Shown here piece by piece: positions 28,510-41,480 of a stretch of DNA of 53,521 nt. The notes under the pieces are model-generated. The model was not told the origin of the DNA, did no database searches, and saw nothing but the letters and a program-made list of their open reading frames with translations. A program made the translations under genes and the position numbers. The stretch is taken from assembly GCA_947623775.1 (NCBI GenBank), contig CANQHL010000001.1:1-53521 (forward strand), read 5' to 3'. This DNA is from an uncultured Clostridia bacterium. Its GTDB lineage: Bacteria; Bacillota; Clostridia; Christensenellales; UBA1242. The stretch's first letter is position 1; each line of letters opens with the position of its first letter.

Positions 28510-31110
28510 ATGTGGTCAAATCTTTTAAATATAAGCGATTCACTAAGTAAATTCTTCGAACAATTAAAAGACTCTATTCATTTTGAGGGCTTTTTAATTA
28601 TTGCCGCTGCGGTCGAAGTGTTATTTATTTTATTGTTCGCAATTAAGTCTGTTTTCTCGTATGAAGCGAGATTAAAACGTATTCTTGACAAATGCAACAC
28701 TTGGCTTTTCCAAAACAAAAAGTTGGACTCGACAAACATTAAGTCGTTCAACAAACTTGTAAAGAAAGGACCAAAGCGTTTTTCATATTATTGGCAACAA
28801 TTTATTCTAAATCGTGATGGTGGTCCAACCGCGTATATGACCGAAGAAAATATAATTGAAAAACCTCTTCGTACAAGCAGTTGGCAAAACAATGTGAAAA
28901 ACTTGGAATTGCTCACGGGAATTTGGGCTGTTATTTCTCTTTTAATGGGAATTGCTTCATTCACCGGGACAAACCTATCAGTGCAAACATTTTCACTCGC
29001 CTTTGTTTTGCCAAGTGTAGTTTTGATTTTAGGTGCAATTGCCGTATTATTTATTAAAGGTAAAAGGGCGTTAAACCTTGATGATATATATCATCTTTAT
29101 CACATCTATGCTCGTTTCGTAACAAAAGCATGTGATGAACTTCCACCTTATATTGACTTTGATCTTTTATTTACGCCAAAAGAAATAGAAAAGGGAAATG
29201 CTCAAATTCGAGAATATTATGAAGAGAAAGCAAGACAAGCAAAGGAAGAATTTGAACAAGCCCAAAAAGCAGAACAAAATCAAATGGATTTCAATTTCAG
29301 AGATGTCGGAGTTGATGGTGCACTTCTGCTTGAAAGAGCAATGAAAGAAAGTGAAATTTACATAACAACAAAAAGCAACACTCTTGCTCAAATTGCAAAA
29401 TTGGAAGCTGAGAGAGATGCGTTAAAACGAAACTTTGAATCTGTACAAATGGATTTGCAAAGAAAATTACAGGCTTCCAAGGAGAATATCCAAAGCCTTA
29501 TTGAACAGCAAACAACCACAACAAATAGATTTGAAGTCGGCCGTTTAAGAGACAGACAAGACAAGGAAATAAAAAAGCAAGAGGACTTGCAAAAAGATTA
29601 TGATAAAGAAGAGAAAAACTTTGAAAAATCAAATGCAGAACTTGAAGAGCAAATCAAAGAATTAAGTGATTCCATGGTTAAAGCACTTGATCAAGCCGAA
29701 AAGGGTATGACTGCAGAATATCAATCATTCTTTAAAAAAGTCATGAAATCCGCTTATGCCGTTGCGGAGGGAAAAGTTGCAAATGAAAAGAAATCACTTG
29801 AAGATGATAAAAACGAGACCGAACAAGAACTTATAAGTGTACAAACACAAATTAAAAGATTACTTGATGAAAATGTTACTTTAAGAGCAAAGATTGAACA
29901 GCTTACAAATGAAATTGAACAAAAGACTCAGCAATTGGAACAAAAGGATAGTGTACCTAAACAAGAAGGCAATTATGATGAAAATGGCAATTTTGTTTAT
30001 CCTGATGGCTCATATCATGATGTAAAGGGTTTCTTCCATGATGTAGATGGCAGGGTTTATGATATGAATGGTAGACTTGTTATTGAAAATGAAAACATCA
30101 CCCAAGAGGAAATTGATGCAGAAGAATTGAAAAACAACATGCTCGATTCATTTGGACCTGTAGCAGTTGAAGAGGAAAGCGAAAAAGAGATTCCGGAAGA
30201 TGTTGAAGAGGAAATACAAGGAGACCTTGAACAAGTTCATTATGATGATGTTGACAATTACACAGAGGAATTAAATGAAGAGCCACATGTATATGATAAT
30301 ATCGATGAAGCGCAACTAGAAAACATTACAAGTGATGGCAATCCTCAAACAGGTGAAGAGGAAGATGGTTATAACGGATTAAATGAGGCTCCAGAAATTT
30401 CTTCCATTGATGAAGAAGAACCCGTTCCAGAGGAAAAAACAGCAGAAACTGAAGAAGTAAATGAACCTGTCAATGCGGAAGAACAGCCTGACGTGATTGA
30501 AGAAATTCCACAAGAGGAAGTTGAAGAAGAAACAAAAGAGAACGCATTGGAAGAGGAGAAACCACAAGAAGAGCCACAACAAGAAGTGCAAGAGGAAGAA
30601 GTTCAAAAACAAGAAGAAGTGCCACAAAAGGAAGAACCACCAAAAGCGAAACCAAGACCTGCTTCACGCGGAAGAAAACCTGGGACATCAACAGCATCAA
30701 AACCCGCTCAAAGAAAAAAGAGGGCAAAACCTCGTAAGCGTGTAGAGAAAAGTGATGTCGAAGAAGTTGTTGAAAGTACAGAGCCAAAGAAAAGAGGCCG
30801 TCCTAGGAAAAATCCTCAAGTGACCGAAAATGATATAAATAAGATAAACGAATTAATTGGTGCCGAAGAAGAGAAACTTGAAAATATGAAAAACCAACTT
30901 TCGCAAGACATCAATCAAGCAATAGATAACAATGTTGATATAGAGAAAGAAAAGACCGAACTCATTGAAGCGGTTGAAGCATTAAGAAAACAAGCAGACG
31001 CAATGAAAGCAGGAAATGAGAGTTCTGAAGAAGTATCAGCAGTAAACAAGCGTATCGAAGATCTTATAAATGAAATATCAAACTTAAACAAGAAAAATGG
31101 TGAGGAATAA
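28510..31110 (+). CDS. Membrane-anchored coiled-coil protein with an acidic low-complexity region and two AT-hook motifs
   Basis: Three hydrophobic helices in the first ~190 aa, a long heptad-rich segment, then an E/Q/P-rich tract. Followed by SRGRKPG (30667-30684) and KKRGRPRKNP (30787-30816), the canonical GRP-core AT-hook. A second coiled coil forms the C-terminus. Confidence 0.75.
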   Translation: MWSNLLNISDSLSKFFEQLKDSIHFEGFLIIAAAVEVLFILLFAIKSVFSYEARLKRILDKCNTWLFQNKKLDSTNIKSFNKLVKKGPKRFSYYWQQFILNRDGGPTAYMTEENIIEKPLRTSSWQNNVKNLELLTGIWAVISLLMGIASFTGTNLSVQTFSLAFVLPSVVLILGAIAVLFIKGKRALNLDDIYHLYHIYARFVTKACDELPPYIDFDLLFTPKEIEKGNAQIREYYEEKARQAKEEFEQAQKAEQNQMDFNFRDVGVDGALLLERAMKESEIYITTKSNTLAQIAKLEAERDALKRNFESVQMDLQRKLQASKENIQSLIEQQTTTTNRFEVGRLRDRQDKEIKKQEDLQKDYDKEEKNFEKSNAELEEQIKELSDSMVKALDQAEKGMTAEYQSFFKKVMKSAYAVAEGKVANEKKSLEDDKNETEQELISVQTQIKRLLDENVTLRAKIEQLTNEIEQKTQQLEQKDSVPKQEGNYDENGNFVYPDGSYHDVKGFFHDVDGRVYDMNGRLVIENENITQEEIDAEELKNNMLDSFGPVAVEEESEKEIPEDVEEEIQGDLEQVHYDDVDNYTEELNEEPHVYDNIDEAQLENITSDGNPQTGEEEDGYNGLNEAPEISSIDEEEPVPEEKTAETEEVNEPVNAEEQPDVIEEIPQEEVEEETKENALEEEKPQEEPQQEVQEEEVQKQEEVPQKEEPPKAKPRPASRGRKPGTSTASKPAQRKKRAKPRKRVEKSDVEEVVESTEPKKRGRPRKNPQVTENDINKINELIGAEEEKLENMKNQLSQDINQAIDNNVDIEKEKTELIEAVEALRKQADAMKAGNESSEEVSAVNKRIEDLINEISNLNKKNGEE

Positions 31111-37713: not shown

Positions 37714-38172
37714 ATGGATAGATATAACAAATTTTATTCTTTAATATCAAGTATAAACAAGTGCATACAAAAAATAAAAAATGAGGAAATGGCACCACTC
37801 GGATTAAAGGGCAAACAGGTGCAGTGCATTTATCATTTATTCAATGAAGAAGAAGGGATTTCGCTTTTAAATTTATGCCGTGTGTGTGGAGAGGATAAAG
37901 GTGCTATGTCACGTACAATCAGCGAACTTGAAAAGGGTGACTATTTATATGTGGAAGAGGCTAAAACTCAAAAATACAGAAATCCTATAAAATTAACAAA
38001 CCGTGGCAAGGAAGTGGGCAAATTTATAAACGATAAAATCAACGAAATGTTTTCTATTTGCAGCGAGGGTGTAAAAGAGGAAGAGCGAGAAAAATTTTAT
38101 GAAATTTTATCTATGGTTGAGGTCAACTTGAAGAATATTTGCAAAAATTATGATGGGGGTGAAGATGATTAA
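37714..38172 (+). CDS. MarR-family transcriptional regulator
   Basis: About 150 aa with a winged-helix pattern (LGLKGKQVQCIYHL...LNLCRVCGEDKGAMSRTISELEKGDYL...LTNRGKEV). AGGAGA RBS before ATG 37714. Confidence 0.6.
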   Translation: MDRYNKFYSLISSINKCIQKIKNEEMAPLGLKGKQVQCIYHLFNEEEGISLLNLCRVCGEDKGAMSRTISELEKGDYLYVEEAKTQKYRNPIKLTNRGKEVGKFINDKINEMFSICSEGVKEEEREKFYEILSMVEVNLKNICKNYDGGEDD

Positions 38173-39013
38173 ATTATTGGTTGATTCGTCCTCTGATATT
38201 GATCAAGAAGAAGCCGACAAATTTGGAATTACCTTGTTGCCTATGGAGGTAAGGTTTGGAGAGGAAGAATATTTAGACGGGGTGACTCTTTCGCACAAGA
38301 GATTTTTTGAACTTTTGATTGAAAGTGATGAGTTGCCAAAAACCAGCCAAATAAATGAGTTTAGATATGAGGAAGCATTTTCAAAATTGACTCAAAATGG
38401 AGATGATGTGATTGCAATTGTTCTTTCCTCAAAACTTTCAGGCACATACAATTGTGCATGCGATGCGGCAAAAAAGTTTAACGGCAAAGTAAGAGTTATT
38501 GATAGTTTAAATGCCTGCGTTGGCGAGAGAATTTTATGCCAATATGCCATTAGACTAATAAATGAGGGATTGGCAATTGATGAAATTGTCGCAAAACTTG
38601 AAGAAAACAAGAAGAAAATAAAACTGCTTGCACTTTTAGACACTTTAAAATATCTTAAAAAAGGCGGCAGAATTTCTGCAGTTGTCGCACTGACGGGGGA
38701 AGTGTTCAATATAAAGCCTGTTGTTTCCGTTGAGGATGGTGAGGTGAAATTGGTGGGAAAGGCAATAGGTTCCAAAAAGGGAAACAACCTTTTAATGCAA
38801 ATGGTTGATGGCTGTGGAGGTATAGATTTTTCAATGCCTTATGCTGTTGCTTATTCCGGTCTTTCAGACGCCCTTTTGCAAAAATATCTTGAGGACAGCA
38901 AGGAAATATGGGAAAATAATACAGATGCCGTGCCTAGATATATGATAGGCAGCACGATAGGCACACACGTAGGTCCGGGTGCAATAGCGGTATGTTTTTT
39001 TGCCAATAAATAA
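38165..39013 (+). CDS. DegV-family fatty-acid-binding protein
   Basis: IKLLVDSSSDI N-terminus, then TSQINE..., LSSKLSGTY and LKKGGRIS motifs typical of DegV. Confidence 0.8.
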   Translation: MIKLLVDSSSDIDQEEADKFGITLLPMEVRFGEEEYLDGVTLSHKRFFELLIESDELPKTSQINEFRYEEAFSKLTQNGDDVIAIVLSSKLSGTYNCACDAAKKFNGKVRVIDSLNACVGERILCQYAIRLINEGLAIDEIVAKLEENKKKIKLLALLDTLKYLKKGGRISAVVALTGEVFNIKPVVSVEDGEVKLVGKAIGSKKGNNLLMQMVDGCGGIDFSMPYAVAYSGLSDALLQKYLEDSKEIWENNTDAVPRYMIGSTIGTHVGPGAIAVCFFANK

Positions 39014-39114
39014 AATTTTGCATATTATTTATAAAAAATATAGAAAATAAACTTAACTTGTTTGACATAGTATTAAAAAAAATGATATAATACTTAATGT
39101 AAAAGGAGAGAATT

Positions 39115-41169
39115 ATGCAAAAATCTGGTTGGGGAAGAAGATTTAAATTAGCACTTATATTCTGCATCATACTCGGAATAGTCGGGTTTGGAGTCGGCGT
39201 ATTGATCGGCTATCTCATGGGTAAGGATTTAAAGTCCGCTTTATACAGCACAGAAAGCCCTTATTCACTTGTTTGTGGTATAATTGGTGCGTTAGTAGGA
39301 CTTGGAATGGGATTATTTAGCCGAAGAAAAATCAATGCAAACTCAAATATCGGTGTTGATACAGAGGGAAAGGAATCGGATGTTGCTTTCGATTCAAAAT
39401 TTATTACGCCTGAAGAAATGAAAACCGATAAGGAACTTATTTACACAACATGGGGAAATTTGCCAAAATGTAACAAAACGGGATTTGTATTCAGAAACAA
39501 ACAGTCGGGCGGACACTTTGAAATTAATATGAAACCTGAAACGCACGCACTTGTTTTAGGTACAACTGGTACCGGTAAAACTCAGGTACTTGCAAACCCT
39601 ACAATAAGAATTCTTGCACACTCAGGCGAAAAGCCAAGCATTGTTATGACCGACCCTAAGGGTGAACTTTATGCCGACAATGCGGCAGTTTTGCAAGAAG
39701 AGGGTTATAAAATTATAGTTTTAAACTTGAATGATCCTTATGCGTCGTCCATGTGGAACCCAATGGAGATTGCATATAAAACATATGAAAGAGCAGGCAA
39801 CCTTGAAAAAGAGGTTAAAACATTTAATGATAAAACTCCAGATGAAGCCGGCTATGCAACATTCAAAGATGATGTTTTAATGGGACAAAAGTACGGCAAA
39901 ACTTGGTATGGTTTTGAGGGTAAAGCGTTTCCAACAAAAGAGATGTTACAACAAGAGTTGGAATCAAGACAAGTACAACTTGAGGACGAAGCAAAGAGTG
40001 ATATAAGAAACATTTCACTTTCACTTATTCCTGAGGATCCAAACAGTAAGGACCCAACATGGACAAATGGTTGCCGTGACTTCATTACAGGTATTATGTA
40101 TGCCATGATGGAAGATACAAGAGACCCAAGACTTGGAATGACTCTTGATAAGTTCAACTTCTTTAACCTTTACAAAATATGTATGAGAAGAGACCCTGCC
40201 GGTGATAGAGAAAGTGCATTAAAAACAGTCACAACCTACGCAGACGGAAGAGATAAGGTAAGAGGAAACGTATTCCAATTGATGAGTGGTGTTTGCCTTG
40301 CCGGTGGTGTAACTCAAAGATCATTCCTTTCAACACTTTCATCTTCAATAGGTAAAACACTTGGTGATGAAGGTATATTGTTCTTAACAAGCGGTACTGA
40401 TATTGACTTTACAAAGATACCAGAGCAGCCAACAGCATTCTTTATCAGAATTCCAGACCATAAAACAGAGAGACACCCACTTGGTGTACTATGTATAAGT
40501 CAATTATATAAAGTTCTCGTTGACGTTGCAAACAAAACAGTCAATCCAAAAACCGGTAAGGGTGGAACATTGAAGAGACCTGTTTACTTCATCTTGGATG
40601 AATTTGGTAACATGCCCGCTGTTCCAAACTTTGGTACAATGGTAACCGTATCGCGTTCAAGAAAGATATTCTTTGAAATAATCTTGCAATCATATAAGCA
40701 ACTTGATATTAAATATGGACCTGATGAAGCACAGAACATTCGTGGTAACTTCCAGATGGAAGTGTTCCTAGGTTCAGAGGACCCAACAACAATTCAAGCA
40801 TTCTCAGAGGCCTGCGGTGAAACAACGGTATTTAATGAAAATATTTCAAGATCAAGACAAACAAACAGAGATGTTGCATCAAGTGGTGAGCAAATTACGA
40901 TTGCAACGCAAAGAAACAGAAAGCCATTGCTTGATAAGCAGGAATTGCGTCAACTTCCGAGATGGACCGTCGTTGCAAAGATTTTCCGTAAGGCGATTAT
41001 GAAAGATATTATGACTCCATTCTATGAAACAAAATGTATGGAAAAGAAGTCTGCTCCGCCAATTGTTTCAATGTCAAAGAAACTTGATATAGACAAAATT
41101 TATTACGATATTGATAGAAGAAATCAAATTGTTATGGGTAAGCAAAAAAATCCATATGAGGAAGACTAA
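39115..41169 (+). CDS. VirD4/TraG/TraD-like type IV coupling protein (T4CP) homologue, orphan
   Basis: Two N-terminal TM helices, Walker A in HALVLGTTGTGKTQ, then VMTDPKGELY, NPM, YFILDEFGNMP (Walker B-like) and SRSRKIFFEIILQSYKQL, in the order typical of T4CPs. No other conjugation genes are in the window. Confidence 0.7.
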   Translation: MQKSGWGRRFKLALIFCIILGIVGFGVGVLIGYLMGKDLKSALYSTESPYSLVCGIIGALVGLGMGLFSRRKINANSNIGVDTEGKESDVAFDSKFITPEEMKTDKELIYTTWGNLPKCNKTGFVFRNKQSGGHFEINMKPETHALVLGTTGTGKTQVLANPTIRILAHSGEKPSIVMTDPKGELYADNAAVLQEEGYKIIVLNLNDPYASSMWNPMEIAYKTYERAGNLEKEVKTFNDKTPDEAGYATFKDDVLMGQKYGKTWYGFEGKAFPTKEMLQQELESRQVQLEDEAKSDIRNISLSLIPEDPNSKDPTWTNGCRDFITGIMYAMMEDTRDPRLGMTLDKFNFFNLYKICMRRDPAGDRESALKTVTTYADGRDKVRGNVFQLMSGVCLAGGVTQRSFLSTLSSSIGKTLGDEGILFLTSGTDIDFTKIPEQPTAFFIRIPDHKTERHPLGVLCISQLYKVLVDVANKTVNPKTGKGGTLKRPVYFILDEFGNMPAVPNFGTMVTVSRSRKIFFEIILQSYKQLDIKYGPDEAQNIRGNFQMEVFLGSEDPTTIQAFSEACGETTVFNENISRSRQTNRDVASSGEQITIATQRNRKPLLDKQELRQLPRWTVVAKIFRKAIMKDIMTPFYETKCMEKKSAPPIVSMSKKLDIDKIYYDIDRRNQIVMGKQKNPYEED

Positions 41170-41204
41170 TTGAATTAAGATAAACAATTTAAAAATCTTT
41201 TAAA

Positions 41205-41251
41205 GAAAAAAGCATATTGAAATTGGACGATCCCAATCAATATGCTTTTTT
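41205..41251. terminator. Long bidirectional terminator hairpin between the T4CP gene and veg
   Basis: AGCATATTGA(AA)TTGG-ACGATC-CCAATCAATATGCT, flanked by an A-run and a T-run. Confidence 0.7.
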
Positions 41252-41480
41252 ATTCTTCCAAGAATATAACATTTCCACATAGTACATCATAATATGAAAA
41301 AGTTTGAATATTTTTTTCTTCTATTGCAACAGTAAAAACACTTGGATAAACATCTTTAATAATACCACTTAGAGTGTCGAATTTTTTTCGTCCACGATTG
41401 ACATTCATTTCAACCTCTCTTCCTTTCAAAGAAAGAATTTTTGTTTTGACTTGTTCAATACTAAGCCCTGCTTTTCTCAT
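41250..41480 (-). CDS. veg: Veg protein
   Basis: 76 aa. IEQVKTKILSLKGREVEMNVNRGRKKFDTLSGIIKDVYPSVFTV...SYYDVLCGNV matches the conserved Veg family pattern. Confidence 0.8.
   Translation of the reverse strand: MRKAGLSIEQVKTKILSLKGREVEMNVNRGRKKFDTLSGIIKDVYPSVFTVAIEEKNIQTFSYYDVLCGNVIFLEE

Follow-up and report, generated by a model that had tools for sequence, protein, structure and literature searches.

A detached coupling ATPase that probably serves a domesticated type IV secretion system in small-genome gut Clostridia

The window analysed here, a stretch of 53,521 nucleotides from an uncultured Clostridia bacterium, carries on its forward strand at 39115-41169 a gene for a type IV coupling protein (T4CP), the ATPase of type IV secretion systems (T4SSs). 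This gene probably encodes the coupling ATPase of a minimal, relaxase-less T4SS that is fixed in the chromosome, vertically inherited and core to its host family. The gene is an orphan at the scale of the window only, as its T4SS partners stand intact on contigs C38, C21 and C15/C37 of the same genome. In the window's lineage the parts of the T4SS have been scattered, and the T4CP gene now stands next to veg and sporulation genes, with a strong sigma-A-type promoter to itself. The host family, made up of spore-forming gut Clostridia with genomes of about 1 Mb, is probably UBA1242 of the Christensenellales.

Identity of the coupling protein

The open reading frame (ORF) at 39115-41169 encodes a genuine, intact T4CP of the VirD4/TraG/TrwB family, since Pfam and PDB matches, a confident AlphaFold model resembling Cagbeta and TrwB, an invariant Walker A motif and a near-invariant Walker B motif all identify it as such. 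It is open over 684 codons, opposite a strand rich in stops. Classification with hidden Markov models returned T4SS-DNA_transf (PF02534, 118.6 bits, cut-off 20.1), TraG-D_C (PF12696, 105.4 bits, cut-off 22) and TrwB_AAD_bind (PF10412, 88.9 bits, cut-off 20.5), all above their cut-offs; the match to PF10412 falls into two stretches, the best listed of which covers aa 462-624. The top NCBIfam model is NF045973 (conju_CD1115), whose 245 bits, split into two stretches, do not reach the equivalog cut-off of 250, and by its profile scores the protein appears to be a close relative of the CD1115 family but not an equivalog. A PDB search with a profile of 30 homologues retrieved coupling proteins only (TrwB, DotL and Cagbeta). 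The AlphaFold2 model (pLDDT 84.9, pTM 0.76) shows a pair of membrane helices at the N-terminus together with a P-loop domain and an insertion made of helices, and the top ranks of its Foldseek search are held by Cagbeta (8DOL, 3e-20) and TrwB (1E9S/1E9R/1GL6, 1e-15 to 1e-12), with target TM-scores of 0.64-0.76. The features by which a T4CP is recognised are therefore found together: profiles above cut-off, a transmembrane (TM) anchor joined to a P-loop nucleotide-binding domain, a TrwB-like fold and a VirB4-type T4SS in the same genome.

The first-pass annotation, made from the sequence alone, had described two N-terminal TM helices and a series of motifs in the order typical of coupling proteins, and all of these are present. 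The membrane anchor comprises two hydrophobic helices at aa 6-34 and aa 50-68 (39130-39318), seen in both the sequence and the AlphaFold2 secondary structure. It is followed by the Walker A motif GTTGTGKT (aa 149-156, 39559-39582), in which none of 64 orthologues departs from G149, G154 and K155, and by the DPKGEL motif (aa 180-185, 39652-39669), in which D180 and K182 are invariant and the remaining positions are 94-98% conserved in the same set. A mostly helical insertion at aa 275-437 (39937-40425), formed by helices in the AlphaFold2 model, is likely the all-alpha domain of T4CPs. The Walker B region FILDEFGNMP (aa 492-501, 40588-40617) keeps D495 in 98% of the 64 orthologues and E496, F497, N499 and P501 in all of them, so that the Walker motifs are not degenerate across orthologues. 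The last block (aa 513-530, 40651-40704) joins SRSRKI (513-518) to QSYKQL (525-530), with R514, R516, Q525 and Q529 invariant.

The CD1115-family VirD4-like proteins of Firmicutes integrative and conjugative elements (ICEs) and plasmids share the layout of TM anchor, nucleotide-binding domain and TraG-D_C domain with the T4CP of the window. Unlike them, this T4CP has no mobile-element context, and the closest plasmid T4CPs are 24-32% identical to it over 61-78% of the length.

Conservation and inheritance

The family sample comprised 61 genomes of 0.7-1.6 Mb from 58 genera, namely that of the window and 60 others. The T4CP is present in 61/61 genomes and 58/58 genera, mostly as a single copy, with 33-42% identity between the window's protein and those of the 60 others. 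Orthologues from public metagenomes grade from 95% to 56% identity, and the 42 related species found in a genome collection are uncultured Clostridia sampled from the guts of rabbits, mice, deer and humans. Pairwise T4CP distances among 25 genomes follow those of FtsK/SpoIIIE (Mantel r 0.77, p 1e-4), and the nearest neighbour is identical for the two proteins in 18 of the 25. Because T4CP distances track FtsK/SpoIIIE distances, inheritance appears to be vertical, and the T4CP would be a core, domesticated chromosomal gene. The suggestion of the first-pass annotation that the ATPase had been domesticated is thus upheld by its status as a single-copy core gene, its correlation with FtsK and its invariant catalytic motifs.

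A second linked T4CP-VirB4 set occurs in two genomes of the family, G014 (contig C7) and G038 (contig C2), where the extra T4CP scores about 290 bits against the window protein and is more distant from it than the main copy. A second VirB4 match was also seen in six genomes of the wider order sample described below (G067, G669, G749, G758, G766 and G649). In the window's own genome (G000), a 39-aa fragment at the end of contig C29 (C29:5-121, minus strand) shares 44-54% identity with the Walker B region in the T4CPs of relatives; it may stem from a second, unassembled T4CP or from contamination.

According to the literature, UBA1242 genomes measure less than 1 Mb and lack amino-acid, nucleotide and lipid biosynthesis while unexpectedly retaining sporulation genes (PMC12306168). 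In a text search, neither that study nor a study of UBA1242 in the chicken caecum mentioned secretion or conjugation.

Partner genes of the secretion system

Essentially every genome of the family has an ORF of some 900 aa that weakly matches AAA_10, often 5-10 kb from the T4CP. The T4CP/VirB4 regions of 16 relatives were fetched, clustered and mapped, and they share a common plan in which the T4CP gene is divergent from an operon of pilin-like, VirB6-like and VirB4 genes. Each operon holds one to three VirB2-like, pilin-like proteins of about 110-170 aa with two helices, which match T4SS_pilin and NF045849 (Mbov_0395) and in the relatives score 48-49 bits against the latter (cut-off 40). Some loci add a surface protein of 500-950 aa that crosses the membrane once. 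A polytopic VirB6-like protein of 700 to more than 3300 aa, with 5-9 TM segments, matches NF045848/NF045889 (MMCAP2_0566/Mbov_0396), with 106-131 bits in the relatives for NF045848 (cut-off 90). The VirB4 ATPase of about 900 aa matches NF045975 (VirB4_plasma, Mbov_0397) at 587 bits against a cut-off of 590; scores across the family run from 523 to 608 bits, 15 of 61 lying above the cut-off. A Pfam search with the large variable proteins of the operon gave no matches, and only the NCBIfam Mycoplasma models recognise them. On the strength of these profiles, the pilin/VirB6-like/VirB4 operon appears to correspond to the core membrane proteins of the conjugation module in Mycoplasma ICEs (PMC6030558).

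VirB4 of the Mycoplasma-ICE type was found in 59/61 family genomes, and in at least 19 genomes the coordinates place its gene no more than 12 kb from the T4CP. The two others, G049 and G058, were considered as T4CP genomes free of VirB4 and rejected as such, because in both the pilin-VirB6 operon runs off the contig end where virB4 would be expected. In G049 the VirB6-like ORF (C3, L119:1-9909, minus strand) reaches at least 3303 aa and is still open at the end of the contig. Five closer relatives in which the T4CP is unlinked have one VirB4 each, and all have retained it.

The genome of the window is a metagenome-assembled genome (MAG) of 1.31 Mb in 126 contigs, 78% complete with 3.5% estimated contamination. 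Its VirB4 is split over two contigs, from C15:18906 to the contig end and continuing at C37:3-659, with 339.8 and 208.5 bits against NF045975. The VirB6-like protein of 907 aa (C21:14631-17354) was found by tblastn with relatives' proteins and scores 71 bits against NF045848, below the cut-off. Two pilin-like genes lie on the minus strand of C38, at 1898-2329 and 711-1109, with 44 and 32.8 bits against NF045849. Interleaved with them on the same strand are two ORFs of 180 and 132 aa (C38:1228-1770 and 281-679), which are possible extra, lineage-specific parts of the T4SS.

The first-pass annotation had found no other conjugation machinery around the T4CP. This holds within the window, where there is no VirB4, VirB6-like or pilin-like gene, relaxase or repeat; genome-wide profile scans and tblastn with relatives' proteins match other contigs only (integrases were not searched). 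For the genome the statement fails, as VirB4, VirB6-like and pilin-like genes stand on its other contigs. The description of the ATPase as stand-alone is likewise unsupported, given that these partners adjoin it in at least 19 relatives.

Relaxases of the MOBP, MOBT, MOBV, MOBQ and MOBF classes (PF03432, PF02486, PF01076, PF03389 and PF08751) were found in 0/5 genomes, namely the window's own and four near-complete relatives (93-99% complete, 3-9 contigs), while positive controls responded. Among the conserved neighbours in the 16 mapped loci there was no DDE transposase, CDS14 lipoprotein or other ICE backbone gene, although no profile search for them was made. The marks of a conjugative element, a relaxase of these classes and a patchy distribution with element borders, were not found.

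Genomic context in the window

The T4CP gene is flanked by signals of its own. A sigma-70-type promoter at 39062-39091 on the plus strand, with TTGACA, an 18-nt spacer and TATAAT (12/12 hexamer matches) and an upstream TG forming an extended -10 element, is the top-scoring site of the region. A strong ribosome-binding site, AAAGGAGAG, follows at 39102-39110, with the ATG 6 nt downstream. Beyond the gene, a hairpin terminator at 41203-41254 separates the convergent T4CP and veg genes; it is an inverted repeat with 18-nt arms that are 94% complementary, a 16-nt gap and A/T runs on both sides.

The neighbours are those named in the first-pass annotation. Upstream lies degV (38150-39013, plus strand; PF02645, 252 bits), a housekeeping gene outside the T4SS, and downstream lies veg (41250-41480, minus strand); the others are genes for a SipL/SPOCS protein (formerly DUF3794), SpoIIR, SleB and YpeB, and a MarR-like gene whose match is weak (20.9 bits, under the cut-off). 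The block veg-sipL-spoIIR-sleB-ypeB stands next to the T4CP in at least 16 of the 42 related species. The remainder of the window is housekeeping, with PPDK, AddAB, GlmS, PriA, Def, Fmt and sporulation genes. The GC content of the T4CP gene, 0.36-0.39, shows no compositional anomaly against 0.31-0.39 in its surroundings, and a search around the gene for flanking or oriT-like repeats and a GC island gave only short, imperfect chance matches.

An 866-aa membrane protein without a Pfam match is encoded 8 kb upstream (28510-31110, plus strand) and is conserved in the closest relatives only, at 54-72% identity. It was considered as a part of the T4SS and rejected, being unrelated to any T4SS part.

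YLDLE tails and an EssC-like ATPase

At least 14 ORFs of the window's genome end in Y-L-D-L-E followed by the stop, and neither a signal peptide nor a TM segment is present in their products. With the strict pattern, 14 tails were counted in this genome and 3 in a sister species whose T4CP is 95% identical, against a background level of 0-1 for each of the 60 other family genomes and of four closer relatives. A relaxed pattern, applied to the five closer relatives only, gave 17 tails for the sister species, while the remaining four had 0-1 each. The T4CP is present in all genomes of this comparison and VirB4 in all but two, and the T4SS is far older and wider than the tails.

Contig C31 of the same genome (L108:3699-10518) encodes an ATPase of the FtsK family, 956 aa long, which matches type VII EssC/EccC models best, with 92.9 bits against TIGR03928 (cut-off 778), 84.6 bits against TIGR03924 (cut-off 509) and one recognisable FtsK domain. 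At these scores, far below the type VII cut-offs, it would be called EssC-like only. Downstream of it are four ORFs of 86-97 aa, an ORF of 130 aa and two zinc-ribbon TPR/Sel1 proteins, and upstream is a BspA-type leucine-rich repeat protein. Its orthologue occurs in the sister species only (83% identity) and not in the four tail-less relatives, and the YLDLE tail fits the type VII YxxxD/E motif. The C31 ATPase is a better candidate than the T4CP for reading or exporting the tails, though no more than a lead, since the shared distribution represents one evolutionary event.

Weighing the explanations

The identity, fold, conservation, partners and distribution of the T4CP and the absence of the tested relaxase families are shown by the analysis; that the scattered parts still work together, and what cargo they move, we infer. 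By family membership, a membrane-anchored T4CP hexamer would bind and hydrolyse ATP through its Walker A and B motifs, use its all-alpha and C-terminal domains to recruit a substrate from the cytoplasm, which the VirB4/VirB6 translocon would then receive. Several points weigh against a domesticated T4SS with a detached motor. The parts are unlinked in the window's lineage, and their joint function would follow from co-conservation. In the one Patescibacteria species tested, t4cp is non-essential while other T4SS genes are essential (PMC12102498), so a T4CP can drift to another role. Mycoplasma ICEs also lack a recognised relaxase and yet conjugate, and the relaxase negative covers five Pfam families in five genomes, with other MOB classes not searched. 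Second copies in several genomes show that the module can duplicate or can move or be exchanged. Finally, the family name UBA1242 was inferred from literature descriptions.

It is improbable, though the strongest of the rivals, that exaptation has given the T4CP a function outside the T4SS, for example moving DNA or protein across a membrane during sporulation or the cell cycle, which would explain its place beside veg, sipL, spoIIR, sleB and ypeB. Exaptation has been suggested for Patescibacteria, where t4cp is dispensable and the other T4SS genes are essential (PMC12102498). In the window's lineage the T4CP is unlinked from VirB4, has its own promoter and terminator and adjoins sporulation genes in at least 16 related species; however, this neighbourhood is limited to one sub-clade, the promoter is of the vegetative sigma-A-type consensus, and in at least 19 genera the T4CP and the T4SS operon form a divergent pair. 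T4CP and VirB4 are moreover co-conserved throughout the family, the two apparent exceptions being contig ends, and FtsK/SpoIIIE in 61/61 genomes leaves no translocase gap to fill. The more specific idea that the T4CP replaces SpoIIIE/FtsK in pumping the chromosome into the forespore was rejected, as a full FtsK/SpoIIIE gene is present in every one of these genomes.

T4CPs recognise C-terminal signals, and the first-pass annotation had proposed the T4CP as the receptor for the Y-L-D-L-E tails that many proteins of the genome carry. Such proteins, with neither signal peptide nor TM segment, would need a non-Sec route if they are exported. The proposal failed its co-occurrence test and is very unlikely, as the tails are limited to the window's species and its sister while the T4CP is found in all genomes compared, and the C31 ATPase shares the tails' distribution; the tail also fits the type VII motif. 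The T4CP could read tails in the window's species alone, a possibility to which the present comparisons give no pointer. Least likely of all is that the gene was left behind by a conjugative element that has decayed, as the first-pass annotation had offered in the alternative, or belongs to a mobile ICE extending past the window. The closest curated family is indeed the CD1115 T4CP of clostridial conjugative transposons and plasmids, a few relatives hold a second T4SS copy, and a short T4CP-like fragment ends contig C29. Against decay stand an intact ORF with invariant catalytic residues and T4SS parts that are themselves intact and conserved; against mobility stand a prevalence of 100% over 58 genera, distances congruent with FtsK, stable chromosomal synteny, the lack of a relaxase of the five families, of bounding repeats and of a GC anomaly, and plasmid homologues that are at most 32% identical.

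Possible substrate and the type IV filament ATPases

If the domesticated T4SS is at work, its cargo is slightly more likely to be DNA, taken up or exchanged between cells, than proteins delivered to partner cells. ComEC is encoded in 61/61 family genomes. In at least eight of them (G011, G024, G032, G033, G037, G049, G057 and G058) ComEC is found 6-9 kb past the T4CP, the T4SS operon being on the other side; this is probably one conserved arrangement within a sub-clade. No PilB/PilT/ComGA-type ATPase was detected in the 61 genomes, where T2SSE matches were weak (at most 36 bits) and fell on ORFs of about 310 aa, taken as putatively SpoIIIAA-like.

The comparison was widened to 401 genomes of the order, with a score above 500 bits taken as a full-length VirB4 of the Mycoplasma-ICE type. 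Such a VirB4 was found in 19/20 further members of the window's family, and it turns up here and there in about twelve other families of the order, most of which have small genomes; in a sample of the class (399 genomes) it is otherwise rare. Type IV filament ATPases occur in 4/49 genomes of the order with the T4SS and in 145/352 without it (odds ratio 0.13 and p 2e-6 in a naive Fisher test; 4/29 and p 0.003 outside the family; values not corrected for phylogeny), and many genomes of the order have neither. A strict exclusion, with 0/18 against 63/133 in a first sample, was rejected when the larger sample revealed the four genomes with both. The negative association hints at a role shared with pili, most obviously DNA capture.

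These patterns allow a tentative proposal, doubtful as it stands, that the domesticated T4SS with its T4CP motor replaces type IV pili or competence pseudopili and captures or exchanges DNA, handing it on to the ComEC channel that every genome of the family has kept. If true, this would be the first ComB-like, T4SS-dependent DNA acquisition in a monoderm, serving nucleotide-auxotrophic spore-formers with tiny genomes. Alternatively, the T4SS may carry out contact-dependent transfer to or from partner cells, by analogy with the proposal for Patescibacteria (PMC12102498), which would fit because the VirB6-like and surface proteins are huge and fast-evolving.

Comparison with known systems

The conjugation module of ICEA of Mycoplasma agalactiae comprises CDS5 (TraG/VirD4), the membrane proteins CDS15-CDS16 and CDS17 (TraE/VirB4) (PMC6030558). 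The NCBIfam models of the Mycoplasma ICE module (Mbov_0395, Mbov_0396/MMCAP2_0566 and VirB4_plasma, the last with 560-608 bits against its cut-off of 590) match the partner genes of the family, the order of pilin, TM protein and VirB4 is shared, and both are simplified monoderm T4SSs without a recognised relaxase. The T4SS of the family differs in being core, vertical, single-copy and not carried on a mobile element, and in having walled, spore-forming hosts. ICE borders and a DDE transposase were not seen in the family loci, for which no transposase profile search was made; the T4CP of the window scores best with the clostridial CD1115 model and not with a Mycoplasma model, and the VirB6-like proteins of the family, at 700 to more than 3300 aa, are far larger.

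The MPF-FATA T4SS of Patescibacteria (candidate phyla radiation) resembles that of the family in being relaxase-less, chromosomal throughout a lineage of reduced genomes and kin to monoderm conjugation machinery (PMC12102498). It also has VirB2-like pilins (PF18895), VirB6 and VirB4, with t4cp usually apart from virB4, and because a relaxase is absent a non-conjugative role has been proposed for it (PMC12102498). It differs in phylum and probably in VirB4 lineage, the hosts here being endospore-formers, and in that type IV pili are usually kept there, whereas a PilB/ComGA-type ATPase is undetected in the window's family.

In Helicobacter pylori, the ComB T4SS stands in for type IV pili at the initial stage of DNA uptake, and ComEC performs the membrane step (PMC13395361). 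The window's family resembles this arrangement in having ComEC in every genome and no detected PilB/ComGA-type ATPase. Unlike the T4SS of the family, ComB has no VirD4-type coupling protein and spans a diderm envelope (PMC13395361). In this comparison, the link of the window's family to DNA uptake consists in a pattern of distribution.

The rvh T4SS of the Rickettsiales is chromosomal and vertically inherited, lies in several islands and has expanded, enlarged VirB6 proteins. In contrast to the T4SS of the family, rvh is a diderm MPF-T system with VirB7-11 that sends effectors into eukaryotic host cells. The dispersal of the rvh genes is mentioned in the study of Patescibacteria (PMC12102498). 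Set among these systems, the T4SS of the family is ordinary in kind, being a domesticated, relaxase-less T4SS of the Mycoplasma-ICE type.

Significance

The membrane proteins of Mycoplasma ICEs have been said to lack homologues outside Mollicutes (PMC6030558). Close relatives in walled Firmicutes widen the range of these proteins and bear on the origin of the conjugation module. For annotation, the many 'orphan VirD4' genes in such MAGs are better taken as pieces of a single machine that have become separated from it. A secretion system retained by every genus probably has a central place in the life of these uncultured gut Clostridia of about 1 Mb, which may obtain DNA or nutrients through their T4SS or depend on contact with other cells, as has been shown for Patescibacteria.

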